A DNA stretch of 64,000 nt from positions 288,001 to 352,000 of the forward strand of contig CAVOXA010000014.1 in the NCBI GenBank assembly GCA_963700285.1, given 5' to 3'. Positions within the stretch are counted from its first letter, which is position 1. Every line of letters starts with the position of its first letter. The notes beneath the pieces are model-generated. The model ran no database searches. It was given only the letters and a program-made list of their open reading frames with translations, and was not told where the DNA came from. The position numbers were made by a program, and so were the translations under genes. Positions 19,001-47,361 of this stretch are shown here, piece by piece. The stretch comes from an uncultured Chloroflexia bacterium (GTDB lineage: Bacteria; Chloroflexota; Anaerolineae; JAAYZQ01).

Positions 19001-22000
19001 ACCGGGTGGTTTCCGCCGCTGTCCATGTCCTCAAAGTCAGCCACGAGCACGCCGGCGCTGGCATCAATGCCCAGGAAGTAGTTCATGTCCCTGTTGTTGC
19101 CGTCGGCTTCGCCCCTGCCCTTTGTCACCAGAGGGATGGCAGCGTCGATGCCTCCCGTGCCCGTCGAGGCACTTTGGCCGGGGCCTTCTCGCTTGAACCA
19201 GGTCTCGAGGGTGAACTGGGCCAGGCCCAGGGCGGGTGCCTGTCCAAAGGTGACATAGTCACTGGACCCGTTAAAGTCCAGGGCGTTGCTCGCCTCGGCC
19301 GGGGTGGTCGCGCAGTCGGGGTCAGCGTAGGTCGAGGGACCGGTAGCATTCGTGGCCCGGACGCGATAGCAGTACTCCTGCTCGGGAGTCAGGCCCAGAT
19401 CGGAGTAAGCCGTGACGTTGGCCCCGGCCGTGTCCAGAGGGGTGTAGGCGCCGCCAATGCCGGTTGTGGAACGCTCGATCTCGAAGCCGGTCTCGTTGCC
19501 GGCGTTGTCGGTCCAGGCCAGGTCGATCTGGTACGCCGAGCTTTCAGTTGCCGCCAGGGCCGTGGGGGCGGCGGGTGCCGGTATGACGATGTCAAAGGGG
19601 GCGCCAGGGGTCACCCAGGCATAGCCAGTGCCCATGACGGTACCGTTGACACTAGTACCAGCTGAGGCATTGACCGCCGTTCCGGTGCCTTCGTCCAGGC
19701 TCCAGCGGCCCACGAGCCCGGCCTGCGGGGTCTCGATCTCAGCGTTGATGTCAGTCTGGATTTCGAGCTGGGTTCGGGCGTGGTCCCAGATACGAACCTC
19801 ATCCAGCACACCATCAAAGTAGCCTTCCGGTGCACCACTGGATCTCATGGCCGTGGCCAGGCCGGCGTGTTGGATGCTGTCGGAACGGACCGGTTCTCCT
19901 ACGACTAGTTCTGCCTCGAGGTTGCCATTGAGGAAGAGCTGCCACTTGTTCCCGTCATAGGTGGCCGCTACGTGGTACCAAGAGTCGTTGCTGATGGGCG
20001 TGGTGCCGATCACCGGATGGTTGAGACCCGGGCTTGCAGCGCTCGCGCCTTCCTCAAAGTCGGCAAAGAGCACGTTGTCCGAGGCGCGGATGCCGAGAAA
20101 GTAGTTGGTATCGACGTTGCTGCTTTCGGCTTCGCCCCGACCCTTGGTCACCAAGGGTATGGCGTTGGTCACGCCACCGATGCCTGTTGTGGTAGTTTGA
20201 CCAGTCCCTTCCCTCTTGAACCAGGTCTCGACGGTGAACTGGGCCAGCCCCAGACCAGGAGCAACGCCAAAGGTGACATAGCCATCGGTCCCGGCAAAGT
20301 CCAAGGCGCTATTGGGCAGCGCGGTCGTGGTGGCGCAGTCGGGGTCACTGAAGGCGGATTCACCGCCGACGTTGGTGGCCCGGACACGGTAGCAGTACTC
20401 CTGCCCGGCAGTCAGGCCCAGGTCCGAGTAGTCCGTGGCGCTAGCTCCGACAGTGTCCAGGGGGCTGTACGTCCCACCAATGCCGTCGGTGGAACGCTGG
20501 ATCTCAAAACTGGTCTCATTGTCAGCGTTATCGGTCCAGGCCAGGTTGATCTGCTCGGCCGAGACAGCGGTAGCCGCCAGGTCTGTGGGCGCGGCAGGTG
20601 GCGATATGACAATGTCAAAGGGAGCGCCCGGCGCCCAGCTATAGCCAGTGCCCATGACGGTGCCGTTGACGGTGGTGCCGGCCGAGCCGTTGACCGCCGT
20701 TCCGGAGCCCTCGTTGAGGCCCCAGCAAGCGACAAGCCCAGCCTGGGGAGTCGTGATTTCCGAATTGATGTCGGTCTGGATCTCAAGCTGGCTACGGGCG
20801 TGGTCCCAGATACGAACCTCGTCCAGCACGCCATCAAAGTAACCGGCCGCTGTGCCAGCGGAGGTCATAGCCGAGGCCAGGCCAGCGTGTTGGATGCTGT
20901 CCGAACGGGGCGGCTGTCCCACGACCAGTTCCGCCTCGAGATTGCCGTTGAGGAAGAGCTGCCACTTGTTGCCGTCATAGGTGGCCGCGACGTGGTACCA
21001 GGTGTCGTTGTTGATAGGCGTGGTGCCGATCACCGGATGGTTTTGGCCCGGACTCGAGCCGGTCGCACCTTCCTCAAAGTCGGCAAAGAGCACGTTGTCC
21101 GAGGCGCGGATACCGAGGAAGTAGTTCGTGTCCACGTTGCTGCCCTCGGCTTCGCCCCTGCCCTTCGTCACCAGCGGGATGGCGTTGGTCACGCCCCCGG
21201 TGCCTGTCGTCGTGGTTTCACCAGCCCCTTCCCTCTTGAACCAGGTCTCGACGGTGAACTGGGCCAGATCCAGGGCGGCGGGATCGCCAAAGGTCACATA
21301 ATCATCGGTCCCGCCAAAGTCCAGCGCGGGATTGGCCAGCACATCGGTGGTGTCGCATTGAACGCTGGTATAGTCGGACTCACCGGCGGCATTGGTCGCC
21401 CGAACCTGGTAACAGTACTCTTGCCCGGGGGTCAGGCCCAGGTCTGAATGGCTCTCGGCGTTGGCCGGTAGGGTGATCAGCGGGCTGAAGGGCCCGCCGC
21501 TCCCGGTGGTGGAGCGCTCGACCTCAAAGTTGGTCTCGTTGTCGGCGTTGTCCGTCCAGGCCAGGTCGATCTGGGCGTGGGAAGCCGTGGTGGCCGACAG
21601 CCCGGTGGGAGCAGCCGGTGCGACAATGAAGGAGATGTTAAAGGGCGCGCCAGGCGTCACCCAGGCCGCCCCGCTGACGGTCCCATCGGCGGAAGAGCCA
21701 GCGGCATTGTAGGCCATGGTCCCGCTGCCTTCGTTCAGGCCCCAGCGGGCCACGAGCCCGGCCTGGGGGCTGGAGAGTTCGTCGTTGATGGTCGCCCGGA
21801 TCTCGGCCTCGGAGCGCGCCGAATTCCAGATGCGGGCCTCGTCGAGGACCCCGTCAAAGTAGCCGGACCGCGAGCCGATGGAAGTCATGGCCGTGGCCAG
21901 ACCGGCGTGCTGGATGCTGTCGGAGCGCGGGGTGGCGCCTTCATTTTCAGTCCCGTCCAGCACGCCATTCAGATATAGCACCCAATCAGAACCATCATAG

Positions 22001-23475: not shown

Positions 23476-23775
23476 CTTTGCCTCCTTGTGCTGGGGGGGT
23501 TCCCACCCAGGCTCCATCGACACTACTGATCGAGTTGCAGAAAGTGACTTCCAGGGTATGCCGACCGCCCGCATTTCGCTTCGGGGTTGGTGCGATGCGG
23601 CTGTGGTGCTAGCTTCTCATTTCCCCTCGCGGAATACGCCTACCAACTGCACCTATCGAGGGTTCCTTCAGCTTGGGGTATCCGATACCGATCTAGGAGA
23701 CCGGCAGGGAACTCGACCGGTGAACCAGTCAGTGTCCGAGCTGAGGATGCGGCTGGACAGAGCGTCTACCCGTCC

Positions 23776-26323: not shown

Positions 26324-28240
26324 TTGAAATCACTTGAGCGCTTGGCAGTGGTCATTGTGGTCGTCTTTTGGGTGCTGTTCGGGGCCTTCCCGACGGCGAC
26401 GCGGGCAGAGGACGAGACACAGATGCAGCTCGTCGGGGTGGAACAGGGTGAGATGTGGCATTCCATCCGCCATCCCGACGGTTGGGATACGTTTGGTGAC
26501 GTCGAGAGGGTAACGGGGGAGACGAGCAGGTTCTCGGCCGTAGCAGTTGCGTCGGTAGGGAACGAGCTGCACCTTGTGGGGGGCACGAGTGACGGCCGGC
26601 TATGGCACACGATTCGCCATGCCAACGGCAAGTGGGACCCACTCAGAGATATAGAGAGTCAGACTGGCGCGGTTCCCACCCTTACGGCACTGGCTGCTGC
26701 TGAAGTGGATGGCAAGCTGCACGTTGTCGGAGTTGGTGCTGGGGGCATGTGGCATACCATTCGGGGATCCACTAGCTGGCAACCGTTCAGCAATGTAGAG
26801 AGTGGCGCCGGGGAACGCGGCGACTTTGATACGGTGGCCGTCGCAGCGGTAGGCAACAAGCTGCATGTTGCGGGTGGGACGATGGATGGCCGGCTGTACC
26901 ACACCATCGGTTCTGCGTCCAGTTGGCAGAGCTTCAAGGACGTTGAGGCCCAGGCGGGGGATCGGGGAAGTTACTCGAGCCTCTCAGCGGCGTCAGTAGC
27001 CAACGAACTGCACCTTGTCGGCGTGGCCGCCGACGGGCGTCTGTGGCACACAATCCGGCACGCCGCCAGTTGGCAGCTTTTCCTCGACGTTGAGGCCCAG
27101 GCGGGCGATCAGGGTACATTCCGGACGGTGGCCGCAGCCTCGGTGGCGGATGAGTTGCACCTGGTGGGTGGCACGAACGACGGGCGGGTGTGGCACACCA
27201 TCCGCCATCCAGCCAGTTGGGATGCCTTTGGCGATGTTGAGGCCAAAGCCGGAGATGTCGTGCACATACGTGCCTCGGCCGCGGCCTCTGTCTCCAATGA
27301 GCTGCAGTTCGTAGCTGTGGGGGAGGGAAGTCTCTGGCATACGATCCAGCACTCCACCAGTTGGGATCCTTTCCAGGACGTCGAGGGCCTGACGGAACAA
27401 GGTGGACATTTCGCGACAGTGGCACTGGCTACCGTGGCCAATGAGCTGCACCTGGTCGGGGGGACGAGTGGGGGGCGACTGTGGCACACGATCCGTCGCG
27501 AGAACGGTTCGTGGCACCGGCTGCAAGACGTCGAGGCCCAGACCGGGGCCGTTGCTACCCTGACCGACATTGCTGCCGCTGAGGTGGCAGGGGAGCTGCA
27601 CGTGGTCGGCGTCGGCTCTGGGGGCATGTGGCATACCATACGCCATGCGGCGAGTTGGCAGAGCTTTTTTGATGTCGAGGCCCAGGCGGGCGAGCGTGGT
27701 GATTTTGAGACGGTGGCTGTGGCTGCTGTCGCCGGCGAACTGCACGTGATCGGTGGGACCAGCGATGGCCGGCTGTATCACACCATACGCGGGGCCAGTA
27801 GTTGGCAGGAGTTCGGCGACGTCGAGGCCCAAGCGGGGGAGCGCGGGGTGTACCTGGACCTGGCGGCTGCCTCGGTGGCGGATGAACTGCACTTTGTCGG
27901 TGCCACAAAGGATGGCAGGCTGTGGCATACGATCCGTCGCGAAGGTGGTTGGGATACCCTCAAGGACGTCGAGGCTCAGGCGGGGGATAAGGGTAGCTTC
28001 TGGGCCGTGGCGGCCGCTTCTGTCGAGGGTGAACTTCAGGTCGTAGGTTCGACGGCGGCTGGCCGGCTGTGGCACACGATCCGCCATCCCACAAGCTGGC
28101 AGACCTTTCAGCACGTGGAAGTGCACGCCGGAGACCATTCTTTCCTGTCGGACATGGCTGCGGCTGCAACGACAGCCATGGGTTTCGACTACGGCGCATA
28201 TCTGCCGATTATGATCAGATCACCGGATCTGGCGCCATGA
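26324..28240 (+). CDS. Secreted 12-repeat Trp/His-rich beta-propeller protein (lectin-like), C-terminal YLPIMIR motif
   Basis: TTG start with a GGAGG RBS; signal peptide ending ATRA/E; 12 repeats of about 49 aa, LHLVG...GRLWHTIRH..SW..F.DVE.QAG. Confidence 0.85.
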   Translation: MKSLERLAVVIVVVFWVLFGAFPTATRAEDETQMQLVGVEQGEMWHSIRHPDGWDTFGDVERVTGETSRFSAVAVASVGNELHLVGGTSDGRLWHTIRHANGKWDPLRDIESQTGAVPTLTALAAAEVDGKLHVVGVGAGGMWHTIRGSTSWQPFSNVESGAGERGDFDTVAVAAVGNKLHVAGGTMDGRLYHTIGSASSWQSFKDVEAQAGDRGSYSSLSAASVANELHLVGVAADGRLWHTIRHAASWQLFLDVEAQAGDQGTFRTVAAASVADELHLVGGTNDGRVWHTIRHPASWDAFGDVEAKAGDVVHIRASAAASVSNELQFVAVGEGSLWHTIQHSTSWDPFQDVEGLTEQGGHFATVALATVANELHLVGGTSGGRLWHTIRRENGSWHRLQDVEAQTGAVATLTDIAAAEVAGELHVVGVGSGGMWHTIRHAASWQSFFDVEAQAGERGDFETVAVAAVAGELHVIGGTSDGRLYHTIRGASSWQEFGDVEAQAGERGVYLDLAAASVADELHFVGATKDGRLWHTIRREGGWDTLKDVEAQAGDKGSFWAVAAASVEGELQVVGSTAAGRLWHTIRHPTSWQTFQHVEVHAGDHSFLSDMAAAATTAMGFDYGAYLPIMIRSPDLAP

Positions 28241-28631
28241 CCTCGCCGGGCTGAACAAAGAACGGCACAGCCCCGCCGGTTCGGTGCTGGGAGATCCTAT
28301 CTCTTGGATCCAGGGGCTCAGGGTGACAGAACGAGAAGCGCAGTGAGCAACCTGACGCTGGCCCGTCCCGTGATCGGCCTGCTGCTGGTGGCGTGCGACA
28401 GGGGGGACGGCGGAGAGGCACCCATCTCGGTGGCGCCCACAGACCCGCCCGCACCGACGCAGGCGGAGGTAGCAGCGCCCACCCATGTTCCTGCGCAGCC
28501 AATGGCGAAGGCGCCGCCTCCGGCCGGGCCTGCCCATCCGACGCCTTCCCCGCCACTCGCACCCGTGGTTTCGCTGGGTGAGATACGCCTGCCCGCTGGT
28601 TCGATCCAGGGGTATTCATCAGGCACGACCC

Positions 28632-28683
28632 TTGACAGCGACGACAGTTCGTGGTATCATGCGCTTGTCTACACAAGTAGACA
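28632..28683 (+). promoter_or_regulatory. sigma70 promoter plus a HutC-type GntR operator for the RLP operon
   Basis: TTGACA(28632)-N17-TATCAT(28655) with TG. Overlapping inverted repeats CTTGT-CTAC-ACAAG and TGTCTAC-ACAA-GTAGACA cover the predicted +1. Confidence 0.75.
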
Positions 28684-28693
28684 GGTACCGCCT

Positions 28694-29434
28694 ATGAAAC
28701 CAATCGACAAGTCAAATCCCATACCCTATTACCTGCAGCTTGCAGAGATGCTGCGGGAGGAGATCGGCGCCGAGCAGTCTCCCGGCATGCCCTACCAGCT
28801 CCCCTCAGAGAACGAACTGGCCTCACTGCAGGGCATCACGCGGGCCACCGTCCGCCGCGCCCTGGACGTGCTGGAGCGGGACGGCTGGATCTACCGGGAG
28901 AAGGGCGTCGGTTCTTTTGCCGCGGTCCGCCGGGTTGAGCACGAGCTGACTCAGTTGGTGTCAACCACCCAGGATATGCGCGAGCGCGGCTGGTCGCTGA
29001 CCACCAGGCTGGTTTCCCTGAAACAGGTGCCGGCTTCGCCTCAAGTCGCCAACGCACTTGAGATTCCAGAGGGAGCCCCATGCCACAAGTTATGTCGCCT
29101 TCGTTTGGTCGACGGCGAGCCCATCAGCGTCCAGACGCCCTACCTGGCGGTGGCGCTGTGCCCGGACCTGGCGGATCATGACCTGACCAGCTCCCTGTAC
29201 CGGCTGCTGGAGACCCGCTACGGGCTGCGCCTGTGGACGGGTAGGGAGATCCTACGGGCGCGGTGCGCACTGTCCCACGAGGAGGAACTGCTGGGGCTGG
29301 AGACCTGCGCGGCCGTCATGTACATGGAGCGCGTGACCTACGCCGCCAGCGGTCAGGCGGTCGAATACCTGGAAGCTGTGTGGCGCGGGGACCGCTATGA
29401 TTTCACCGTATCCCTTTCGCGACCCCAGACATAA
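28694..29434 (+). CDS. GntR-family (HutC/UTRA) transcriptional regulator
   Basis: PYYLQL...LPSENELA...ITRATVRRAL...KGVGSF winged HTH plus a UTRA domain (VEYLEAVWRGDRY). Start moved to MKPIDK, downstream of the promoter. Confidence 0.92.
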   Translation: MKPIDKSNPIPYYLQLAEMLREEIGAEQSPGMPYQLPSENELASLQGITRATVRRALDVLERDGWIYREKGVGSFAAVRRVEHELTQLVSTTQDMRERGWSLTTRLVSLKQVPASPQVANALEIPEGAPCHKLCRLRLVDGEPISVQTPYLAVALCPDLADHDLTSSLYRLLETRYGLRLWTGREILRARCALSHEEELLGLETCAAVMYMERVTYAASGQAVEYLEAVWRGDRYDFTVSLSRPQT

Positions 29435-29446
29435 GGAGGAAGAAAG

Positions 29447-30434
29447 ATGGCAAGAGAACTACGCTTTTCGGCGAACATCAATACCTTCAACGCCTGCGCC
29501 GACCGCTACGTCCTTTCGGGCTATGGCGAGCGGCTGACCAGCGAGGAGCTGATCGAGGCCGCCACGCAGGTCGAGGGGCTCACGGGCGTCGAGGTGGTCG
29601 GCTTCTGGCACGTCAACGACGACAACGTCGACCAGGTCCACCGCCAGATCAAGGACGCCGGCCTGGAGGTGACCTGCGTCACGCCCGACATCTGGGCCTC
29701 GGGCAAGTGGGGCTGGGGCTCGTTCTCGGCCAACGACCCCCAGATCCGCCGCGACGCCATCCACGAGGTCAAAAAGTCGATGGAGTGGGCCAAGCAGATG
29801 GACTGCGAGGTCGTGGACCTGTGGTTCGGCCAGGATGGCTACGACTATCCGCTCCAGGCCGACTATCTGGCCGCCTGGGACCGCATCATCGAGGGCACCA
29901 TCGAGTGCGCCGAGCACCTGCCCGAGGTCAAGCTGGTCATCGAGTACAAACCCAAGGAGCCGCGCACCCACTGCTTTCATCGGCACCGTGGGCAAGACCC
30001 TGCTGCTGGTCGAAAAGGTGAACAAGCCCAACGTGGGGGCCATGATCGACGTCGGCCACGCGCTGATGGCCTACGAAACCGCCGCCGAATCGGCCGCGCA
30101 TGCTGCAGTACTTTGGACAACAAGCTCTTCTACATGCACTTTAACGACAACTGGCGGCATGTGGGACGACGACATGACCGTCGGCTCGGTCCACACCGTC
30201 GAGATGCTGGAGCTGCTCTACTGGCTGGACCGGATGGACTACGACGGCTGGTACGCGCTGGACATCTTTCCCTATCGCGAGAACGGCGTCCGGGCCGCCA
30301 CCGAGAGCATCCGCTGGATCCAGGGGCTGCACGGACTGCTGGACAAGATTGGGCGCGAGCGCATCGGCGAGGTCGTGGCCAGCGGCGACGCGATGGAGGC
30401 TTCGGCCATGGTGCGGGAGGCACTGTTGGGGTAG
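29447..30434 (+). CDS. Xylose-isomerase-like TIM-barrel sugar isomerase (frameshifted in this sequence)
   Basis: Motifs WFGQDGYDY, EYKPKEPR, DVGH, HFND, WDDD and LDIFP are split over two frames (indels near 29976, 30100-30115 and 30158). AAGGAGG RBS. Confidence 0.85.
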
Positions 30435-30439
30435 GGCCG

Positions 30440-30570
30440 TGGTACGTGGTACGTATTGTATGGTGCGTGTTGCGTGGTGCGTAGTGCGTACGGTTTTACA
30501 CCGGTCACGTAACACGCAGTACATTTCACCCATCACCTGTCACACAGCACGACTCACAATTCACGAATTA
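30440..30570. repeat. Degenerate heptamer tandem repeats in inverted arrangement (intergenic)
   Basis: Units CGTGGTA, CGTGTTG, CGTGGTG and CGTAGTG are followed by CACGTAA, CACGCAG and other TCAC-containing units. Confidence 0.6.
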
Positions 30571-30598
30571 CTTTGGACACCTGACACTGGAGGTCACA

Positions 30599-31946
30599 AT
30601 GGCAAAAGAACTGTACGATCCGCACATGTTCAACTATATGTGGGAGAGCCTGGACCAGGACCGCTTCGTCGTCGGCACCTACTATATCGAGGACAACAAG
30701 CCCGAGTGGGACTTCATCGACCACCTGGCCCAGGTCCAGAGGCTGGCCTTCGAAGGGTCCACAGCCAGCTGGATGGAGGTCAAGGAAGAGACACCCGAGG
30801 TGCGCGAGCGCTTGAGCAGCAAGGTGCTGGGCTACTATGAGATCCCGGCCCCCAAGGGCACAAAAAAGGCCATCGTCCAACTGGCCTTTCCCATCGCCGC
30901 CTGGGAAGCGAATGTCAACCTGCCCATGCTGCTCCTTTCCATCTCGGGCAACATCTTTGCCTTCTGCGACAAGGTGCGCCTGATGGACGTGTACATCCCC
31001 AAGTCGGTGGCAGCCAAGTTCAATGGACCCAAGTTCGGCATCGAGGGCATGCGCGACCTGTTGAATGTCCACGACCGTCCGCTGTGTTTGCAGATCATCA
31101 AGCCCAAGATGGGCATGACGCCCGAGGAGACGGCGGCCCAGGTCTACCAGAGCGCGCTGGGCGGCGCCGACCTGTGCAAGGACGACGAGATGTGCAGCGA
31201 GCTGGACAATTGCTCCTTCGATGACCGGCTCGAGGCGGTGCTGAAGGCGCTGGACAAGGCCGAACAGGAGACCGGGCGAAAAGACGATCTACCTGGTCAG
31301 CATCACCGACGAGTCCAACCGGGTGCACGCCAAGGCGCTGCGCGCCGTTCGGGCAGGGGCAACCGGGCTGCTGCTGGCCTATTCCGCCGGACTGTCGACC
31401 CTGAAGGAGCTGGCCGACGATCCCGAGATCAACGTGCCCATCATGCTGCACCCATCGCACATGCTGGGCATGATCGAGACCTTTAGCTGGGTGACGCTGT
31501 CCAAGCTGTGCCGTCTGAGCGGAGCCGATCTGATGCTGTCGCCCTCTCTGTGGTCCAGCCTTCAGACCTGTTCCATCGAGGAAGAACTGCGAACCTCGCA
31601 GACGCTGCGCGCGCCGTTCCACAACATCAAGCGCACCTGGCCCATGCCATCGGCGGGCATGTATCCCGGCCTGGCTGACGTGCTGATCCAGGAGCATGGC
31701 ATCGACTTTATCGTGCCGGCAGGCGGCGGCATGCTGGGTCATCCCATGGGCTACAAGGCCGGGGCCATGGCCTGGCGGCAGGCCTTCGACGCCGTGCTGT
31801 CGGGCATGACCCTGCAGGAGGCCGCGCAGCAGTACCCCGAGTTCCGCGCCGCGGCCGAAACGTGGGGCATCCGCGAGCGACCCAAGACGCCATGGTCCTA
31901 CCACAGCCCGGACTTCCACCCCAAGTTTGCGGCCAAAAATCTGTAA
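30599..31946 (+). CDS. RuBisCO-like protein (form IV RLP), ~448 aa; one extra A at 31279-31282
   Basis: Motifs EGSTASW, GN, GPKFG, IIKPKMG, GGADLCKDDE, HPS, RLSGAD, PSAG and AGGGMLGHP.G..AGA.AWRQA. Removing one A gives GRKTIYLVSITD and joins the two ORFs. Confidence 0.92.
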
Positions 31947-32067
31947 TTGGGCTTAGGTGGGCTGGGAACTCGGGCAACCCACGCCAGCAGGCGGGCCACA
32001 GCGGTACCAGCCTTGGCCTGGCGCCTGATTCCCAACCTGCCCGCAGCTGATAGGGGAGGACAGAGCC

Positions 32068-33064
32068 GTGCCTAGTTCCAAAAGACCGCTGCTGGACATG
32101 TACCGTACCATGCTCACCATCCGCCGCTTCGAGGAGCGGTGCAACTACCTCTACATGCAGGGGCGGATCCCTTCGACGCTGCACCTCTACATTGGCCAGG
32201 AGGCGGTGGCCACGGGGGTCTGCGCCAACCTGCGATGCGACGACTACCTGTTGAGCACGCACCGGCCCCACGGCCACGCCATCGCCAAGGGGGTAGCGCC
32301 GCGGGCCATCATGGCCGAGCTGTTGGCCAAGACCACGGGCTGCTGCCAGGCCAAGGGCGGCTCGATGCACGTCGGCGACGTCAATGTGGGCATGTTCCCG
32401 GCCATCGCCATCGTCGGCGGCAACGCACCCATCGCCGCCGGGACCGCCCTGGCCGCCAAGTGGCTCGACGCCGACCGGGTGACGGTCTGCTTCTTTGGCG
32501 ACGGCGCGGCCAACGAGGGCGCCGTACACGAGGCGATGAACATGGCCGCCATCTGGGACCTACCGGTGGTCTATGTCTGCGAGAACAACCTGTACGCTGC
32601 CTCGACGCCGGTTTCGACGACCTTCAAGATCGAGGACATCGCCGACCGGGCGGCTGCCTACGGCATGCCGGGAGTGATCGTCGATGGCAACGACGTGGAG
32701 GCGGTCTACGAGGTTGCCGGGGAAGCCATCGCCCGCGCCCGACGCCGCGAGGGGCCGACGCTGGTCGAAGCCAAGACCTACCGCCAGTGCGGGCACTCGC
32801 GCAGCGATCCACGCACCTATCGCTCCCAAGAGGAGGAGGCGCTGTGGGAGGCGCGGGACCCCATCCCCAGGCTGGCAGCGCGCCTCAAGGTGCTTGGAAC
32901 TGGCCAGCGACGAGTGGCTGGCGGCGGTCGAGCAAGAGGTGGAAACGGTGGTAGACGAGGCTGTAGCCTTTGCGGAGACCAGCCCGTCGCCGGAGCCGGA
33001 GGACGCGCTCAAGCACGTCTTCTGGTCCCAGGCGCCGGATCTGGCGGAGGTGTCCCATGGCTAG
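32068..33064 (+). CDS. TPP-dependent dehydrogenase E1 alpha subunit (acetoin/pyruvate dehydrogenase family); indel near 32895
   Basis: HLYIGQEA, THRPHGH, GKGGSMH-like, the TPP motif GDGAANEG...ENN, and TYR..GHS.SDP..YR. Confidence 0.9.
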
Positions 33065-34072
33065 AATGAGCATCGCCGAAGCCCTGCGCCAGGCCATCCG
33101 CGAGGAGATGCGCCGCGACCCCCGCGTATTCTGTATCGGCGAGGACATTGGCATCCAGGGTGGTTTCGGCGGCGCCTTCACGGTCACGCTGGGGCTGTCC
33201 GACGAGTTTGGCCACGAACGCATCCTGGACACGCCCATCTCCGAGGCCGGCCTCAGCGGGGTGGCCATCGGCGCGGCCATGGCCGGGCTGCGCCCTATCG
33301 CCGACGTGCAGTACGGCGATTTCCTGTTCTGCGCCATGGACCAGATCGCCAACCAGGCGGCCAAGATGACCTACATGTCGGGCGGCACGGTCAAGGTGCC
33401 CATGGTCATGCGCGTGCCGGTGGGCGCCACCCGCCGGGGCGCGCAGCACGCCCAGAGCCTGGAGGCTTTTTTCACCCACATTCCGGGGCTCAAGGTCGTG
33501 GCCCCGGCTACAGCCTACGACGCCAAGGGATTGCTCAAGAGCGCGGTACGCGACGACAACCCGGTGCTGGTCTTCGAGCACAAGCTGCTCTACGGCAGCA
33601 AGGGCCCCCGCTCCGAGCCGGGCGCCCTCAGCCCCATCGGCGAGGTGCCCGACGAGGAGTACCTGGTGCCCATCGGCCAGGGCATCGTGCGCCGCGAGGG
33701 GCAGAGATGTGACCATCGTCGGCAAGCTGCTGACCATGTACCGCGCCCTGGAGGCGGCCGAAACGCTGGCCCAGGAAGGGATCGAGGCCGAGGTCATCGA
33801 TCCCGCGCACCCTGGTACCGCTGGACAAGGAGCTGATCCTGGCCTCGGTGCGCAAGACCGGGCGGCTGGTCGTCGTCGAGGAGGACAACCTGACCGGCGG
33901 CTGGGCGGCCGATATCGCCGCCATCGTCGCCGACGAGGCCTTCTTCTGGCTCGACGCGCCCATCAAGCGCGTATCGGCGCCCGACACACCGGCGCCCTTT
34001 GCCCCGGTGATGGAACAATTCTACGTGCCCAGCACCCAGCGAGTCGTTGATGCCGTGCGTTCTCTCTTCTAG
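33057..34072 (+). CDS. TPP-dependent dehydrogenase E1 beta subunit; indels near 33700 and 33805
   Basis: [39 protein letters not shown] and [12 protein letters not shown]. Overlaps the end of the alpha gene. Confidence 0.9.
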
Positions 34073-34104
34073 GGGGCACCGCCGGCGCCAGTACGCATCC
34101 ACTC

Positions 34105-34161
34105 GGGAGTCCCGAGCTTGCTCGGGCCGAAGGTATCCCCCCCGGCAAGCTGGGGACTCCC
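34105..34161. terminator. Long inverted repeat between convergent genes
   Basis: GGGAGTCCCGAGCTTGC...GCAAGCTGGGGACTCCC. Confidence 0.65.
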
Positions 34162-34165
34162 AGAG

Positions 34166-35605
34166 CTACAACCCAAGCCGGGAAGCCACGTACGGATTCA
34201 GGAACAGGGGCTGGACCAGCTCTGAGAACTTGGTCAGCCCGTGATTTTCAGCCACAAACTGAGGATCCATGAAATTGATCTTGCCCCAGTGGGCCTTGAA
34301 GGGAATCCCCTCCCGGACAAAGTGATCCCACAGACCCTGAAGGTGGGTACCGATCAGCGCCTTTTCTTCCATCGTCTCGCAGATATCGGTCAGGTACATG
34401 AAGTTGAGCTTTACGATGTAATCGAGGCCTTCCCAATTCCAGGGGGACATGAGATAGTTGTCCGTCTTGGAAAGCTCAATCTCGGTAGGGATGTTGGGCC
34501 AGCCATGTCTTTGGAAATAGGCTTCGCACTGGGCCAGGATCGCGTCCAGGTCCTGGGGCCTGAAGGACCACTCAGCCATGGCCACATGCAGCGGCGCCCG
34601 TCTGTCTACCGGCAGCATGTTACGCAACGGACCGGTGACATTGACCTTGTTCAGGTTGTAGAAGGCTGTCAGCAACTGGTAGACGACCTGCATGGTGCCG
34701 TCCAGCAGCGGGCCGGCGGATCCCCGGCGGATCCTGTCCCAAAGCATAAAGAGAAAGCTGAGTACACTCTCGGCTTCGTCGGGATCATAGTCACCCTCGG
34801 GCTTCGCTTGGTTCTTGGGGATCTGCTTCGCTGCCCACAGCAGCGCCTTGTCAGAATCTGGCATCCAGTTGACTCGCCAGAAATCATACTTTTCGGAGGT
34901 GGCCTCCAGGTCGCCCAACGCCTCTTCCATGGAGATCATTTTCATCGTCACCGCGAAAAAGAGCTCGTCGACAACCCTAAATTGTATTCTGGTGATGATG
35001 CCGATGGCACCGAGAGAGCATACCACCGCCGCAAAGGCTGGATCGGACCTTGCGACGCGGTGCTCCACCACCGATCCGGATGCCGGATCGACAGTAATAT
35101 ACTCGACCCAGTTTACCAGGTCATAGATTCCCTGTTTTGGTGAGGCCGGTGCGGTACTGGTCGACATGATGCCGGCCAGCGTCTGTGCGTTGGTGCCTCC
35201 GAGAGCGCCCAGCGACTTGCCGCGTTTGCCCAACTCCCCAAAGAACTCGTGGAGCGTCCAGTTTGCAGTAGCCGTCACCACCGAGTCGTCGTCCAAGTAT
35301 TCGATGGTTTTGGGCAAGCCGCCGACGTCGATGACGGCATCCGATACACAGATCTCGGAGCAAGAGTGGAGACTCCCCAGAACTCGGATGGAATCCACCC
35401 CGACGGTGCCATGCGCAACACCGGCCAAGAACCCTTTGAGCTCCTCTGTGGTTCGCGGCTTGTAGTACAAGCGCGGGCTGAACGAAACGAAATCAGACCA
35501 GTCACGGATGATAGGACCCACTTCCTCCTCTTCCATCGGGCCCCGTGTAGCCAGGGCGCGAGGAGCTAGCAATTGACCGGACAACAATCGATAGCTCTCA
35601 CTCAT
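34166..35605 (-). CDS. FAD-linked oxidoreductase, aldonolactone oxidase (ALO/GulLO)-like family
   Basis: G.LHSCS FAD-binding His motif, QTLAG..ST, SLGAIGII and C-terminal HWGK. Start MSESY has a GGAGG RBS; TGTTATAAT lies at about 35682-35690. Confidence 0.8.
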   Translation of the reverse strand: MSESYRLLSGQLLAPRALATRGPMEEEEVGPIIRDWSDFVSFSPRLYYKPRTTEELKGFLAGVAHGTVGVDSIRVLGSLHSCSEICVSDAVIDVGGLPKTIEYLDDDSVVTATANWTLHEFFGELGKRGKSLGALGGTNAQTLAGIMSTSTAPASPKQGIYDLVNWVEYITVDPASGSVVEHRVARSDPAFAAVVCSLGAIGIITRIQFRVVDELFFAVTMKMISMEEALGDLEATSEKYDFWRVNWMPDSDKALLWAAKQIPKNQAKPEGDYDPDEAESVLSFLFMLWDRIRRGSAGPLLDGTMQVVYQLLTAFYNLNKVNVTGPLRNMLPVDRRAPLHVAMAEWSFRPQDLDAILAQCEAYFQRHGWPNIPTEIELSKTDNYLMSPWNWEGLDYIVKLNFMYLTDICETMEEKALIGTHLQGLWDHFVREGIPFKAHWGKINFMDPQFVAENHGLTKFSELVQPLFLNPYVASRLGL

Positions 35606-36154
35606 AGCATCTACCCTCCAGTCACAGATTGGTTGTTGGTCCTGTTCCACCTTGGAGTAGGGGCATCATTGCAGGGGCAGCATTATAACACAGTTTCCAA
35701 CTTTAGGCCAGTTGGGTACGATCTGCCAACAGGGTACCATAGGATCCGTCGTGGTTGGCCTGCGGATGAAGCTCTCAACGGCGCCCTCAAAGACCTCGCC
35801 TGGGTAAGGCGGGTTGACGCAGGCAATCTGGATGGCCAAGGGCCAGCATCAGGATCCAAGACCGGAGCGGAATCCGCAAGGCATCTTGTCGTTCAGGCGC
35901 GCCAGCGTCCATCTTTTCGATACACCTGGCATGGACCCCAATACGTGTCCAAGGCTGGCATCAGTGGGCGCTAGAATGCCAGCCTCCCAATAGAGAAATC
36001 GGTGAACATCAGTGTGGCCAAAATGGCGCGGGCCAGGATGATGACGGGCAAGCCTATGCCCAGCAGCCAACTGGGAAGTTGGCCGCTGCCGATCAGCTCC
36101 GAGACACGGAGCCGGGTACCATTAGGGATAGGGGTCTTTCTGCGTCGGAAACTG

Positions 36155-37265: not shown

Positions 37266-39974
37266 TCAGTCGTGGTAGGCGTAGACCGCCTGCTGGGCGC
37301 CCTCCAGGAATTGCTCGGCAGTGGTGGCCGCAAAGAGCTGGAGCAGTTTGGCAACAACCCCGGTCCAACCTGTCTGATGGCTGGCCCCAATGCCCGCGCC
37401 GTTGTCACCGTGAAAATACTCGTAGAACAGCAGATAGTCGCGCCAGTTGGGGTCGGTCTGGAACTTGGCCGCGCCGCCAAAGACCGGCCGCTGCCCCTCA
37501 TCGTCGCGCAGAAAGATGCGCGCCAACCGGTTGCCGATCTCTTCCGCTACCTGGTACAGGTTCATCTGCTGGCCTGAGCCGGTGGGACACTCTACGGTGA
37601 ACTCCGGGCCATAGTACAGATAGAAATTGAGCAGCGCACGGACGATCAGCACATTCATTGGCATCCAAACGGGGCCGCGCCAGTTGGAGTTGCCGCCAAA
37701 CATGCCGGTGTCCGACTCAGCGGGTAGGTACTCGACCCGATACTCCTCGCCGCCCCAGCGGAGGATAAAGGGATGCTCCAGGTGGTAGCGAGACAGGGAA
37801 CGGATGCCATGGGCGCTGAGGAACTCGTCCTCGTCCAGCATGCGCGCCAGCACCCTTCGCAGCTTGCGTTCGTCCAGGAGTGCTAGTAGATACCGGCCGC
37901 CATATCCAGGCTGGCTGGGCAGCACGATATTGGCCACAAGTTCCGGGCGCGCCTGAAGAAAGTGACTGGCCCGGTCCCTGAAGTGAGTGAGGGTTTCGAT
38001 GGATTCGGGTGCAAACACGGTCGCGGCGCACAGGGACAGGAGCCCTACCATCGAGCGGACCTTCAGCCGTCCGGCGCGGCCGTCGGGCAGACGCAGCAGG
38101 TCGTAGAAAAAGCCATCCTCCTCATCCCACATCTCGTCTTGGTTCTCGCCGACGCGGTCCATGGCCGCCGCGATCCACAAAAAGTGCTCGAAGAACTTGA
38201 CCGCCATCTGCTCATAGACCGGGTTGTGTTGGGCCAGCTCGATGGCCATCTCGAGCATATTCTGCGCAAAGAGCGCCATCCAGGCCGTGCCATCGGCCTG
38301 TTCGAGGTTGCCGCCGGTGGGCAATGGGGAGCTGCGGTCAAACACGCCGATGTTGTCCAGCCCCAGGAACCCGCCCTGAAACACATTGCGCCCGGTCAGA
38401 TCCTTCCGGTTCACCCACCAGGTGAAATTGAGCATCAGCTTGTGAAAGGCATTCTCCAGGAACTCGACGTCGGGCTGCCTGGCCAGCATCTGCTCGGTAT
38501 GGTAGTTAAAGAGCGTCGCCCAAGCATGCACCGGCGGGTTCACGTCGCCAAAGTTCCACTCGTAGGCCGGGATTTGACCGCTTGGGTGCAGGTAATGCTC
38601 GCGAAGCATCAGATCCAGTTGCTGCCGGCCAAAGGCTGGATCCACCATGTCGAGGGCCAGGGTATGGAAGGCCAGGTCCCAGGCAGCGTACCACGGATAC
38701 TCCCACTTGTCGGGCATGGAGATGACTTCTGCATTGAGCATGTGATACCAATCGTTGTTGCGCGCGGCCAGCTTCCTGGTTGGCGACAGCGGGTCGGCGC
38801 CGCGCTCCTCGAGCCAGCGGTCCACGTCGTAGTAGTAGTACTGCTTGGACCACAACATACCCGCCAACGCCTGCCGGATCACGCGAGCTGCATCGGGGTC
38901 CAGCGAATCAGGCGTGACGCCATCGTAGAACGCATCTGCCTCGCGCAGGCGCGCCTGCACGACCGACTCGAACTCCCGGCCGAAGGGCTTTGTCAGCGCG
39001 GCAGGCGCTATGCCGCTCAGGCGCAGGTGGAGGATGGTGCCCTGTCCCGGTTCGAGGGTCAGGTGGTAGTGGGCAGCAGCCTTGGTGCCTACCTGGCCGG
39101 GATTTACGGCGCCGGCCTGATCGTACACGATGTAGTTGTGGAACCCGTCCTTGACATAGGGGCTGGAGTTCGGCTGTCCCGAGATCCGCTCGGTGTTGGT
39201 CTCGTTTTCGGTGAAGAGCAGCGGAACCTGGCCCTCGCAGTACAAGTAGAGCTCACCCAACTCCTGGTGGCGGACGGCGACCGTGCTCACTCCCTTTGGG
39301 CCATCGACCCGTTGAAGGACCGGCTTGGGGGCAGCGTCGAACCACGACCACGTGTTTCGAAACCAGAGGGTGGGCAACACGTGCAGTTCGGCTGCCTCGG
39401 CGCCCCGGTTGACGACCTGGATGGCGATCAGCATGTCCTCTGGCGTGCTCTTGGCATACTCGACAAAGACATCAAAATAGCGATCGTCGTCGAACAGGCC
39501 GGTGTCGAGCAGCTCGTATTCTGGCTCATTGCGGCTGCGCGCGCGGTTGGTGCGCACCAGGTCTTCGTAGGGAAAGGCCATTTGCGGGTACTTGTAGAGA
39601 TACTTCATGTAGGAGTGAGTCGGCGTGCTATCGAGGTAAAAGTAGTACTCCTTTACGTCCTCGCCGTGGTTCCCCTCGCTGTTGGTCAGGCCAAACAACC
39701 GCTCCTTCAGGATCGGGTCCTGGCCATTCCACAGGCTGAGGGCAAAACAGAGAAGCTGCCGGTCGTCGCTGATGCCGCCGAGACCATCCTCGCCCCAGCG
39801 ATAGGCCCGGGAGCGGGCCTGGTCATGGCCAAAATCTGCCCAGGCGTTGCCATCAGCGCTATAGTCCTCGCGTACCGTACCCCACTGCCGCTCGCTCAGG
39901 TAGGGGCCCCACTTGCGCCAGGGTGCTCCTTGCTCATCTGCCTCCATGAGGCGGGTAACTTCTTGATTCTTCAT
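37266..39974 (-). CDS. GH63-like (MGH1-like) glucosidase
   Basis: WGPYLSERQWGTVREDYS, MPDKWEYPWYAAWDLAFH, GGNSNWRGPVW and EYFHGDNGAGIGASHQTGWTG. Start placed at MKNQE. Confidence 0.9.
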   Translation of the reverse strand: MKNQEVTRLMEADEQGAPWRKWGPYLSERQWGTVREDYSADGNAWADFGHDQARSRAYRWGEDGLGGISDDRQLLCFALSLWNGQDPILKERLFGLTNSEGNHGEDVKEYYFYLDSTPTHSYMKYLYKYPQMAFPYEDLVRTNRARSRNEPEYELLDTGLFDDDRYFDVFVEYAKSTPEDMLIAIQVVNRGAEAAELHVLPTLWFRNTWSWFDAAPKPVLQRVDGPKGVSTVAVRHQELGELYLYCEGQVPLLFTENETNTERISGQPNSSPYVKDGFHNYIVYDQAGAVNPGQVGTKAAAHYHLTLEPGQGTILHLRLSGIAPAALTKPFGREFESVVQARLREADAFYDGVTPDSLDPDAARVIRQALAGMLWSKQYYYYDVDRWLEERGADPLSPTRKLAARNNDWYHMLNAEVISMPDKWEYPWYAAWDLAFHTLALDMVDPAFGRQQLDLMLREHYLHPSGQIPAYEWNFGDVNPPVHAWATLFNYHTEQMLARQPDVEFLENAFHKLMLNFTWWVNRKDLTGRNVFQGGFLGLDNIGVFDRSSPLPTGGNLEQADGTAWMALFAQNMLEMAIELAQHNPVYEQMAVKFFEHFLWIAAAMDRVGENQDEMWDEEDGFFYDLLRLPDGRAGRLKVRSMVGLLSLCAATVFAPESIETLTHFRDRASHFLQARPELVANIVLPSQPGYGGRYLLALLDERKLRRVLARMLDEDEFLSAHGIRSLSRYHLEHPFILRWGGEEYRVEYLPAESDTGMFGGNSNWRGPVWMPMNVLIVRALLNFYLYYGPEFTVECPTGSGQQMNLYQVAEEIGNRLARIFLRDDEGQRPVFGGAAKFQTDPNWRDYLLFYEYFHGDNGAGIGASHQTGWTGVVAKLLQLFAATTAEQFLEGAQQAVYAYHD

Positions 39975-40169
39975 ATCGCCAACCCTTTCCATTTGTCTGC
40001 GTGATAGATTATCCACTTGGCCGCTTGTCATCCCGCCCGGCTGGGTCACAATCCGTCAGCCGCCCGGGCCCCGCCTGCCTTCCACCCGGAGACGCACCCG
40101 GAACCTCACCCGGCGACCACCCTGCCTGCCGCACCGATTGCAGACTGTGCCGGGCAGTTACCCAATACG

Positions 40170-40684: not shown

Positions 40685-42169
40685 ATGGCTGATCTACAGT
40701 GCCTGGCTCTTGACCTCGGCGCGGAGAGTGGGCGGGCCATGCTGGGCCGGTTTGACGGGGAGAAGGTGCAGATCTCCGAGGTCCACCGTTTCCCCAACGT
40801 GCCGGTCTACGTACCGCACGGACTCCACTGGGACATCCTGCGCCTGTGGAGCGAAGTGAAGGTGGGCATCGCCCTGGCCGTCAGGGATCTGGGACCTGAC
40901 CTGGCCAGCGTGGGCATTGACACCTGGGGCGTAGACTTTGGCCTGCTGGGCCGTGACGGCGCCTTGATCGCCAACCCCTGCCACTATCGAGACAGCCGCA
41001 CCGACGGCATGCTGGACGAAGCTTTTCGCCGCGTGCCCCGCGCCGAGATATTCGAGCAGACGGGCATCCAGTTCCTACAGCTCAACAGCCTGTATCAACT
41101 CCTGTCCATGGCCACCAGCCACTCGCCACTGCTCGACATCGCCGCGACCTTTCTGACCATCCCCGACCTGCTCAACTACTGGCTGACCGGACAGGCAGTT
41201 TGCGAGTTCAGCAACGCGACGACGACCCAGTGCTCCAGCCCCCGTACCGGTGACTGGGCCAGGGGCATGCTGGAGCGCGTGGGCATTCCGTCTCACATTT
41301 TCCCCGAGATCGTGCCGCCGGGCACCGATCTGGGCCCGCTTCTGCCCCTTGCAGCGCAAGAAGTGGGGCTGTCGTCTGATACCGGACCCGCAGTCATCGC
41401 GCCCGCTTGCCACGACACAGGATCGGCCGTCGTAGCGGTGCCCGCCACAGAGCCCGGCTTTGCCTGGATCAGCTCCGGGACCTGGTCGGTGGTCGGCGCC
41501 GAGGTACGGGTGCCTGTCATCAACGCCCAGAGCCTGGCCCACAACTTTACCAACGAGGGCGGCGCCTGCGGTACCTACCGCTTCTCGCGCAACGTCATGG
41601 GCCTTTGGCTAGTACAGGAGTGCCGGCGCACGTGGGCCAGCCAGGGCGAGGAACACAGCTACAAAGACCTGGTCGGGATGGCGGAGAGGGCCGAGCCCTT
41701 CCAGGCCGTCATCGATCCGGATTATGTCGAATTCTTCAAGCCCGGCGACATGCCGGCCCGCATCCGCGACTACTGCCGGCTGACAGGCCAGCCAGCGCCT
41801 GGGAGCAAAGGTGCCGTCGTGCGCTGCGCGCTGGAGGGGATCGCCCTCAAATATCGCTGGGTGTTAGAGCGCCTGGAGGAGATGCTGGACCACCGCCTGG
41901 AGCCTCTATATATCGTCGGCGGCGGGACACAGAACCGGCTGCTATCGCAGTTCACGGCGGACGCAACAGGCAGGCAGGTAATCACGGGTCCCGTGGAAGC
42001 CACGGCTACCGGCAACATCCTGATGCAGATGCTGGCGCTGGGACGCATTGCCTCGCTGGCGGACGGTCGGGCTATCGTCCGCAGCTCTTTTGAGCTGTCG
42101 GTTTACGAACCGGACGCTGGCGACCGGTGGGACAACGCCTACGGACGCCTGCTGGCGCTACTGGAGTGA
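40685..42169 (+). CDS. Rhamnulokinase-family (FGGY) sugar kinase
   Basis: LALDLGAESGR, GIDTWGVDFGLL, HYRDSRT, HDTGSAV, ISSGTWS, FTNEGG, VGGG.QN and GPVEATA.GN. Orphan: no rhaA or rhaD next to it. Confidence 0.9.
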   Translation: MADLQCLALDLGAESGRAMLGRFDGEKVQISEVHRFPNVPVYVPHGLHWDILRLWSEVKVGIALAVRDLGPDLASVGIDTWGVDFGLLGRDGALIANPCHYRDSRTDGMLDEAFRRVPRAEIFEQTGIQFLQLNSLYQLLSMATSHSPLLDIAATFLTIPDLLNYWLTGQAVCEFSNATTTQCSSPRTGDWARGMLERVGIPSHIFPEIVPPGTDLGPLLPLAAQEVGLSSDTGPAVIAPACHDTGSAVVAVPATEPGFAWISSGTWSVVGAEVRVPVINAQSLAHNFTNEGGACGTYRFSRNVMGLWLVQECRRTWASQGEEHSYKDLVGMAERAEPFQAVIDPDYVEFFKPGDMPARIRDYCRLTGQPAPGSKGAVVRCALEGIALKYRWVLERLEEMLDHRLEPLYIVGGGTQNRLLSQFTADATGRQVITGPVEATATGNILMQMLALGRIASLADGRAIVRSSFELSVYEPDAGDRWDNAYGRLLALLE

Positions 42170-46459: not shown

Positions 46460-47188
46460 CTATCCGGCCCGGGAGACCTGCTTGCGCAGGCCGGCAATCT
46501 GCGCCTGGGCTTCGGCAATGGCCTCTTCGAGCCGGGCCACGGACGGCGTCCCCCCGCGCAGGGTTTCCAGGATCACCGCCTCGGCGGCGACATAGGCATC
46601 GGCGATATCCGCCATCTCTGCCGCGGTGTCCCTGGGGATGGTCGTCACGCCATTCAGATCCGCGTGCAGCAGGTCGTCAGGGTAGATGGCCAGGCCGCCG
46701 ACGTGGACCGGCACGTGGACGTGCAGAATGTGGCAGTATCCGTGGGCGCAGATGGTGCCATTGGTAAAGGCGGGGAAACCAATCGCCCGGACCTGGTCCA
46801 GATCCCGGCCGGCGCCGCTGGTGATCAGACCCCGCGCGCCAAAGGTCTGGTAGGTGGTACACATGACCTCGCCAAAGGTGGCAGCCACGGCGGGATCATC
46901 CAGATCCTGAAAGACGACGACCGGCGGGCCAGACAGCTCTCCAAAGCGCTCAACCTGGGCCGTCGTGCTGGAATAGGCGTCTCCCTCACGAGGAGGGCCC
47001 CCGGCCCGAAAGGTCGCCGTGGCCGCAAAGCCAACCATGGGCGCCATCTCTGGGAAACAGGCCCGGATGCGGCTGTCCATGTATCCAGCGTTCCGCGGAC
47101 GGACCTCAAAAAGCTCGACCAAGTTGCAGATGGTGGGTGTATCGAACTGTCGCAGTTTCTCCAGTACCTCTGTGCTGATTTCAGACAT
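46460..47188 (-). CDS. RraA-family / HMG aldolase-like protein
   Basis: DTPTICN, VGFAATAT, A.FGEVM, G..TSG..RD and I.P.DLLHAD.NGV..IP. Confidence 0.85.
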   Translation of the reverse strand: MSEISTEVLEKLRQFDTPTICNLVELFEVRPRNAGYMDSRIRACFPEMAPMVGFAATATFRAGGPPREGDAYSSTTAQVERFGELSGPPVVVFQDLDDPAVAATFGEVMCTTYQTFGARGLITSGAGRDLDQVRAIGFPAFTNGTICAHGYCHILHVHVPVHVGGLAIYPDDLLHADLNGVTTIPRDTAAEMADIADAYVAAEAVILETLRGGTPSVARLEEAIAEAQAQIAGLRKQVSRAG

Positions 47189-47361
47189 TTGACTCCCTCA
47201 GTATTTTATGATTTCCCGCTTTGGTCGCGGCCAACTCTTCCCGTAGAGTTGGAGCAGCCCTTGATGTAGAGCAGGGTCAACCTGCCTCGCCCCGACGTGA
47301 TCGCATGTGAGGATGCTTGCTCCGCGCAGTGGATGCCGACTCCACATGGCTCATGCCTGTC

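Follow-up and report, generated by a model that had tools for sequence, protein, structure and literature searches.

Few of the form IV RuBisCO-like proteins (RLPs) have been characterised (PMC10176493), and form IV proteins of Chloroflexota have been reported without a known function (PMC11650866). The RLP of Rhodospirillum rubrum converts methylthioribulose 1-phosphate (MTRu-1P) into methylthioxylulose 5-phosphate (MTXu-5P) or MTRu-5P (PMC4958253). Here we describe an operon built around an RLP gene in a stretch of 64000 nucleotides (the window; positions 288001 to 352000 of contig CAVOXA010000014.1) from an uncultured Chloroflexia bacterium (genome G000, a 7.05 Mb assembly in 22 contigs), the named relatives of which are Anaerolineae. 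It quite probably belongs to a sugar catabolic pathway in which an isomerase, a kinase, the RLP and a thiamin diphosphate (TPP)-dependent E1/E2 enzyme act in series. Judged from sequence and by analogy, there is about an even chance that this is a deoxy-sugar route, in which the RLP would shift the carbonyl group from C2 to C4 before oxidative cleavage by E1/E2. The preliminary description of the window gave five co-oriented genes behind one promoter/operator and closed by a hairpin, all of which gene calls and motif and fold analysis bear out:

28632..28660, + strand: sigma-70-type promoter, -35 TTGACA and extended -10 TG-n-TATCAT; same layout 5' of the GntR gene in relatives
28664..28685, + strand: GntR operator CTTGT-N4-ACAAG with a further half-site, directly 3' of the -10
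28694..29434, + strand: GntR/HutC-type regulator with UTRA domain (PF00392, PF07702), intact
29447..30434, + strand: TIM-barrel aldose-ketose isomerase (AP_endonuc_2) of its own clade, four single-base insertions
30599..31946, + strand: form IV RLP of an uncharacterised clade of about 450 amino acids, one insertion near 31277
32068..33064, + strand: TPP-dependent E1 alpha with acetoin-dehydrogenase-like THRxHGH motif, one insertion near 32891
33057..34072, + strand: E1 beta, insertions near 33698 and 33805
34102..34165, + strand: long GC-rich hairpin between the operon and a convergent oxidase gene
40685..42169, + strand: rhamnulokinase-like kinase of the FGGY family, intact; its orthologs come after E1 beta/E2 in related operons

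Of 204 genome loci and 347 metagenome loci the best 80 each were surveyed, with some loci occurring in both sets, and each count is restricted to loci with enough flanking sequence. In the genome loci the isomerase gene was present in 48/59, both E1 genes in 47/53 and the GntR gene in 35/52, and where flanks were long a lipoyl E2 gene was found in 30/45 and a RhaB-like kinase gene in 18/40. Isomerase, E1 alpha and E1 beta all stand beside the RLP in 29/38, so the gene set that the preliminary description had read as one pathway does recur in other genomes. The metagenome loci gave 28/41 for the isomerase, 32/35 for the E1 pair, 17/22 for all of these together, 18/26 for E2, 15/20 for the kinase and 21/32 for GntR. 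In addition, we took an even sample of the class (201 genomes of at least 88% completeness, in which kin are not independent) and found the core RLP in 17. Sixteen of these 17 also have the core isomerase at more than 500 bits, counting the split copy of G000 and a contig-edge piece in G111, compared with none of the 184 others (next best 426 bits); a RhaB-like kinase is present in 17/17 as against 75/184. The usual unit is GntR-isomerase-RLP-E1 alpha-E1 beta-(E2)-kinase, the last two members being assigned on the locus counts, on the co-occurrence of the kinase in all 17 RLP genomes and on the 85% identity of the window kinase to the kinase that follows E1 beta by 1.3 kb in the related locus L033. 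Loci of the RLP clade also occur in Spirochaetota, Aerophobetes, Armatimonadota, Omnitrophota and Bathyarchaeia. One Spirochaetota genome (L060) has two RLP-E1 modules side by side in opposite orientation.

By comparison with L033, which is intact and 92% identical, the window copy carries eight extra single bases, near 29971, 30100, 30120, 30157, 31277, 32891, 33698 and 33805, which shift the frame of four enzyme genes (isomerase, RLP, E1 alpha and E1 beta). All eight are +1 insertions, and no in-frame substitution stops were found in the aligned frames. Contigs of relatives from public runs have one base fewer at or beside each of the eight places, and RhaA, FucI and several E1/E2 genes elsewhere in the assembly are split likewise. 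Because the insertions are absent from L033 and from the relatives' contigs and because unrelated genes are split alike, they look like assembly errors, and intact orthologs were therefore used in all analyses. It is scarcely credible that the operon in G000 is instead a decaying pseudogene cluster: although four genes bear eight frameshifts and reads of the same strain were not found in public runs (best word share 0.11), the lesions are of the +1 type only, without substitution stops, they recur in genes that have nothing to do with the operon, and promoter, operator, GntR and kinase are all intact.

A protein search with the N-terminal part of the RLP returned 336 proteins, of which the best 120 are 72-96% identical to it and mostly about 450 amino acids long; many proteins of this clade carry an automatic MtnW label. 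The RLP has the domains PF00016 and PF02788 and an invariant carbamate/Mg motif, KDDE (K201-D203-E204). Intact members nevertheless reach none of the curated cut-offs for RLPs or RuBisCO, with 228/497 bits (TIGR03326) and 221/438 bits (PRK04208) for bona fide RuBisCO, 279/409 and 232/514 bits for the MtnW profiles and 137/700 bits for NF042437 in the comparison with OiaX and the DUF1537-linked RLPs. The best match in the PDB is MtnW (2oek, E 1e-63), and a structural model (pLDDT 80) fits RLP structures at TM 0.77-0.80, MtnW being the best of them at TM 0.80 and 32% identity. In a FastTree phylogeny of 143 sequences, which used only representatives of 385-470 amino acids among 150 and did not include the R. 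rubrum RLP or any form III reference, the core clade is monophyletic (support 0.989). Together with MtnW and further RLPs of Anaerolineae it makes up a broader group (support 0.975), to which OiaX, IV-Photo and the RLPs linked to DUF1537 do not belong. By sequence, then, the RLP is a clade of its own outside the characterised families, and the possibility that it would fall into a characterised isofunctional cluster did not materialise.

Residues of the RLP are numbered as in RuBisCO, whose assigned roles we assume to hold at the aligned positions. The RLP retains E60, N123, K175, K177, K201, D203, E204, H294 and the phosphate loop with G403/G404. It has lost R295, H327 and K334, which serve the second phosphate and the carboxylate, and every aligned member (30/30) carries the loop-6 Trp. 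Asn occupies position 123 in all core members shown, compared with Lys in annotated MtnW, a residue that we take to be K98, the general base of that enzyme. With the fold and the carbamate/Mg motif present and R295/H327/K334 gone, the protein is by its sequence a form IV RLP. Since the Mg-binding, enolising and C1-phosphate residues are kept while those three are lost, the pattern suggests that it enolises a monophosphate bearing an uncharged tail. G000 has a second RLP (contig C10, 2003374-2004539), the cluster of which recurs in L241-L244 and L246 with URO-D-like, LsrF-like and further uncharacterised genes, and sister RLPs of 37-40% identity (L236-L239, L245 and L247, Anaerolineae) form two-gene units with an XylB-like FGGY kinase.

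The isomerase lies far below the cut-offs for XylA (99/447 bits) and RhaI (82/531 bits). Its best match, both structural and by sequence, is 3KTC, a putative sugar isomerase from Pectobacterium (TM 0.92, 35% identity), which we presume to be ApsI. Identity to apiose-isomerase-type proteins is 35-39% (29-31% for two distant members), compared with 57-61% within that group, and the metal site reads H-F-N-D instead of D-V-N-D and the beta-2 loop W-H instead of P-F. W54-H55 is invariant and might correspond to the ring-opening His of xylose isomerase, which would imply a pyranose substrate, but the alignments stop short of that region. Two of three plasmid homologs inspected stand in apiose-type isomerase-transketolase-FGGY clusters and the third does not; the clusters of the nearest plasmid homologs run isomerase-transketolase-FGGY-tpiA with GH127 or pectin enzymes. 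The protein, first described as xylose-isomerase-like, is indeed a TIM-barrel sugar isomerase but is closer to the apiose-isomerase type than to xylose isomerase; on these alignments it is nearest to the apiose-isomerase-type proteins, yet not a member of them. Given this level of identity, the differing key motifs and the kinases of unrelated subfamilies, the operon is not an apiose pathway by membership.

The window kinase, displaced by 6.6 kb from the operon, scores 472 bits against the RhaB profile TIGR02627 (cut-off 528), 116 against FucK and 79 against XylB, and operon kinases are 24% identical to those of apiose clusters. A quick tree placed it within a clade of operon kinases (support 99), with the paralog on contig C5 outside; the idea of a dedicated operon kinase clade was rejected, as RhaA-linked kinases elsewhere are equally close. 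E1 alpha carries the THRxHGH motif and is 48% identical to the E1 alpha of an operon (acoXABC-type) annotated for acetoin dehydrogenase, in which the motif is likewise present; the motif is not exclusive to acetoin dehydrogenase, since a PTS-linked E1 also has it. The E1 of an intact ortholog falls below the pyruvate dehydrogenase (PDH) cut-offs, with 372/394 bits for TIGR03182 and 293/411 for TIGR03181. No E2/E3, transporter, methionine-salvage or DUF1537 gene is found in the window's copy of the operon, as the preliminary description had it, but this does not hold as a trait of the family, in which E2 is frequent (30/45 loci). Several E2 genes and two E3-like genes lie outside the operon in G000. 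On gene content, the kinase and usually a lipoyl E2 are part of the pathway beyond the five genes, so that cleavage is probably oxidative and acyl-CoA forming. Six or more additional E1 alpha/beta pairs are encoded in G000, several of them within sugar clusters.

From the gene content, conservation, co-occurrence, operator and RLP residue pattern observed, we infer every one of the following reactions. The isomerase would convert a deoxy-aldose into the 2-ketose, from which the rhamnulokinase-like kinase would produce the ketose 1-phosphate. With the MTRu-1P isomerase of R. rubrum as the model, the RLP would then move the carbonyl from C2 to C4 by two enediolate proton transfers, giving the alpha-ketol R-CO-CHOH-CHOH-CH2OP. 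Acetoin dehydrogenase cleaves a ketol to an aldehyde and acyl-lipoamide, and the AcoAB-like E1 may similarly split this alpha-ketol into glyceraldehyde 3-phosphate (G3P) and acyl-lipoamide, from which E2 would form the acyl-CoA; the acyl group is predicted to be acetyl from a 5-deoxypentose and lactoyl from a 6-deoxyhexose. In G000, E2 and E3 would be supplied from other loci. The preliminary description had put forward the sequence of isomerase, carbonyl shift by the RLP and ketol cleavage by E1. Its outline agrees with the residue pattern and the gene context, although the pathway extends beyond those five genes.

Clusters with RhaA but without canonical RhaD (G000 contig C5, 196400-227000; L187/L188, L190, L193, L194 and L206) hold a class II aldolase-like gene, a PHP-domain protein, E1 alpha/E1 beta, E2 and sometimes a transaldolase-like protein. 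They also contain a SorE-like Zn dehydrogenase (574 amino acids) and a sorbitol-6-phosphate dehydrogenase above cut-off, and they are present in RLP-free genomes too (L193, L194 and L206). Such a dehydrogenase pair first reduces and then re-oxidises its substrate and so shifts a carbonyl, the chemistry of L-sorbose catabolism, and these clusters are thus a candidate for a second undescribed rhamnose route, with a redox carbonyl shift followed by E1/E2. Being analogous in moving the carbonyl before E1/E2, they support the model of RLP followed by E1. A wider proposal, that the RLP is a general ketose-1-phosphate 1,3-isomerase replacing an aldolase, with a PDH-like complex yielding G3P, acyl-CoA and NADH, and that this design was reached twice in Anaerolineae (through the RLP and through the SorE/SorD-like redox pair), is somewhat less probable than its opposite.

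Several observations weigh against the deoxy-sugar route as formulated. E2 is missing from 15/45 long loci and from the window operon, for which the best E2 elsewhere in G000 is just 47% identical to operon E2, and E1 alpha is missing within 8 kb in 6/56 genome loci with at least 2.5 kb downstream. The kinase is not operon-specific, in that genomes without the RLP have kinases linked to RhaA that are up to 71% identical, and XylB-like kinases, which usually phosphorylate the distal carbon, stand instead beside the distant members L083/L084, L089, L090 and L092 and the sister RLP clades. The nearest characterised relative of the RLP in the tree is MtnW, the R. rubrum RLP being in neither the tree nor the residue table. 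A RhaD-like aldolase is kept in 11/50 RLP genomes (about 120 bits, below cut-off), 6/17 RLP genomes are without both RhaA and FucI, and 23/30 FucI genomes are without the operon.

These last two counts argue that the operon is not a general fucose or rhamnose route, and the first of them makes plain rhamnose or fucose doubtful as the substrate. Rhamnose- and fucose-type genes do recur near RLP loci (RhaS above cut-off, RhaM and FucI), and in G056 and G042 a distance of 3-35 kb separates the operon from fuc/rha clusters. In the even sample FucI was found in 7/17 RLP genomes as against 23/184 others, and RhaA in 8/17 as against 27/184. Two candidates were discarded: a general fucose route, for which hand-picked genomes had given FucI in 31/50 versus 3/30 before the figures fell to those of the even sample, and an RLP/E1 pair that simply stands in for RhaD in L-rhamnose catabolism. 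Against the latter, G000 encodes RhaA in another cluster, which includes a kinase, RhaA occurs in only those 8/17, and a RhaD-like gene persists in the 11/50 RLP genomes mentioned. RhaEW, with 12 candidates scored per genome, was found in 0/50 versus 3/30 genomes. As the isomerase is the obligate partner, the substrate is probably a related sugar outside the range of RhaA and FucI. An LsrF-type thiolase (above cut-off) with a short-chain dehydrogenase/reductase (SDR), found in 6/80 genome loci, points to a methyl-terminated C5 skeleton and could give the same split into a C3 unit and acyl-CoA, and the rhamnose-type transport and kinase genes point to a 6-deoxyhexose. What fits best is a 6-deoxyhexose not handled by RhaA/FucI (e.g. 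6-deoxy-L-talose, giving L-fuculose 1-phosphate) or a 5-deoxypentose. RhaEW-like aldolase/SDR fusions lie beside LsrF in RLP operons (L029, 3336-5303; L073, 5969-7945; L039, L044, L047, L049 and L098), and in 5/7 genome loci listed the aldolase domain of these proteins is lost and the SDR part kept.

Other substrates and other chemistries were weighed against this route. One is a C3-branched sugar (apiose-, streptose- or aceric-acid-like), from which the RLP would remove or move the branch on the phosphorylated sugar, by decarboxylation, retro-aldol cleavage or an alpha-ketol shift, before E1/E2 cleaves. Such a reading draws on the match of the isomerase to 3KTC, on the GH127/pectin context of its nearest plasmid homologs, on apiosidase-like (PF13204) neighbours in 5/80 genome loci and on the decarboxylation of branched acid sugars by known RLPs (PMC6302742). 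It is unlikely, in that the isomerase is only 35-39% identical to its counterparts and differs in metal-site and beta-2-loop residues, the kinase is as distant as 24%, and the RLP branches apart from OiaX and the DUF1537-linked RLPs and is without the R295/K334 that these keep. Closer to the preferred chemistry, though for another purpose, would be the scavenging of by-products of S-adenosylmethionine (SAM), in which free 5-deoxyribose or 5-methylthioribose is isomerised and phosphorylated, the RLP forms 1-deoxyxylulose 5-phosphate (DXP) or MTXu-5P, and the end products are G3P and acetyl- or methylthioacetyl-CoA. Escherichia coli K-12 excretes both sugars (PMC10986504), the substrate type is exactly that of the R. 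rubrum RLP, LsrF above cut-off and the AcoA-like E1 point to a methyl-ketone C5 skeleton, and MtnA occurs elsewhere in G000. However, MtnK, MtnA, MtnP, Pfs and cupin genes are not among the annotated recurring neighbour clusters of the 160 loci, where rhamnose/fucose-type transport and catabolic genes recur instead, and we regard scavenging as rather unlikely.

The RLP might also make a single shift, from C2 to C3, whereupon cleavage of the 3-ketose 1-phosphate by E1/E2 would yield a 3-phosphoglyceroyl thioester together with lactaldehyde or acetaldehyde. The conserved K201/H294 machinery suffices for one enediolate step, and the retention of the RhaEW-like SDR without its aldolase domain looks as if an aldehyde were still formed; the adjacent LsrF-type thiolase could equally be fed by that SDR, and we know of no precedent for 3-phosphoglyceroyl-CoA metabolism, which leaves this alternative distinctly unlikely. 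Very unlikely, finally, is an RLP that serves as a ketose-phosphate epimerase or isomerase (e.g. ribulose 1-phosphate to xylulose/ribulose 5-phosphate) feeding the pentose phosphate pathway or an aldolase, with E1/E2 acting on a small acyloin or 2-oxoacid. Sister RLP clades do form kinase-RLP units without E1 in 6/16 loci, E1 alpha is not nearby in the 6/56 core loci mentioned and class II aldolases stand beside some loci, but E1 alpha/E1 beta follow the RLP in 47/53 genome loci and no aldolase is a regular member.

Within the operon the spacings from GntR through isomerase and RLP to E1 alpha are 12, 164 and 121 bp, and E1 alpha and E1 beta overlap. The region 28200-34400 contains a single sigma-70-like promoter (TTGACA-17-TATCAT with TG, an 11/12 match to consensus), a count that by itself is at chance level (shuffle mean 0.9 sites), and most of the 65 related loci examined show this arrangement of promoter and operator in front of GntR. 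A TTGT-N4-ACAA palindrome is present in 37/65 homologous upstream regions. With a position weight matrix (PWM) built from 43 distinct sites of these 65 regions, the site at 28664 stood alone as a strong match across the 7.05 Mb of the genome (35 bits, the next one scoring 17). A search for other members of the regulon, which could have revealed the sugar, returned the window's own site only. Autorepression by GntR through the predicted operator is likely. The hairpin at 34102-34165 (-45.1 kcal/mol, z -5.0, equalled by 0/200 shuffles) is single copy in the genome and, being without a U-tract, does not qualify as a classical intrinsic terminator. In one RNA run 5% of the sequence words were present, and the contigs of that run, mostly less than 90% alike and with no listed piece spanning a gene junction, are for this reason unable to show a transcript.

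Around the operon the window contains, on the minus strand at 34166-35650 and convergent with it, a gene resembling FAD-linked sugar 1,4-lactone oxidases (PF04030/PF01565), which is missing at the corresponding place in L033. An MGH1-like/GH63 glycoside hydrolase of 927 amino acids (37266-40049, minus strand) separates the operon from the kinase. Upstream are a secreted 638-residue protein with repeats of about 50 residues and a weak CV39L lectin/Kelch match (26324-28240, plus strand; 89 bits, cut-off 350) and an open frame of about 4,500 amino acids, probably a large secreted repeat protein (10018-23616, minus strand). An RraA-like/HMG-aldolase family protein is encoded at 46463-47197 (minus strand).

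This RLP clade is common (17/201 genomes of the class) and routinely mislabelled MtnW, and since it is accompanied by a whole pathway and a defined operator the proposal can be tested in vitro. If correct, it would give the RuBisCO superfamily a new reaction, extend PDH-type E1 chemistry to sugar phosphates, conserve thioester energy that aldolase routes lose and explain the use of deoxy-sugars by abundant sediment and digester Anaerolineae without textbook aldolases. In the literature, supplements not being covered (those of EFI-type networks could list the cluster), we found no paper linking an RLP to an isomerase, a RhaB-like kinase or E1. Each part is of a familiar kind, but for their arrangement the searchable literature offers no description. 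The preliminary description had not recognised the combination from characterised RLP pathways, and the RLP itself lies outside the characterised families.

The closest mechanistic model is the R. rubrum RLP Rru_A1998 of the 5-methylthioadenosine (MTA)-isoprenoid shunt, with which our RLP would share the conversion of a ketose 1-phosphate into a 5-phospho-2-ulose via enediolates (PMC4958253). Rru_A1998 acts after MTA phosphorylase and MtnA and is followed by a cupin, yielding DXP for isoprenoids, whereas the operon RLP is partnered by an isomerase of free sugars, an FGGY kinase and E1/E2; the cupin methylsulfurylase and MtnP/MtnA of the IV-DeepYkr context are not among the annotated recurring neighbour clusters. 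With MtnW (YkrW, the 2,3-diketo-5-methylthiopentyl-1-phosphate enolase) it shares the broad clade (0.975) and a similar loop 6 without K334, but it has Asn for the general-base Lys (position 123) and keeps E60 and K177, and no mtn genes (mtnXBD context) are among those neighbour clusters. It differs from the apionate RLPs OiaX/OiaT in clade and in being without R295/K334, and no DUF1537 (four-carbon acid sugar) kinase is among the annotated recurring neighbours of core loci.

In overall logic the operon resembles the D-apiose transketolase pathway (ApsI-AplK-AptAB), where an isomerase and an FGGY kinase likewise precede a two-subunit TPP enzyme, yet its kinase is of another subfamily (24% identity) and E1/E2 takes the place of the transketolase. 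With acetoin dehydrogenase AcoABC it has in common the E1 alpha motif and the 48% identity to an acoXABC-type E1 alpha, but AcoX kinase, AcoR-type regulator and butanediol dehydrogenase are not among the recurring neighbours and the proposed substrate is a sugar phosphate. In its first two steps it would parallel the L-rhamnose/L-fucose pathway (compared through RhaA/RhaI/FucI, RhaB/FucK and RhaD/FucA) and the 5-deoxyribose dihydroxyacetone phosphate (DHAP) shunt, in which isomerase and kinase produce a (3R)-ketose 1-phosphate (PMC6079011 and PMC10986504). Unlike these, the operon core is without an aldolase, and the products predicted for it are G3P and acyl-CoA rather than DHAP and an aldehyde.

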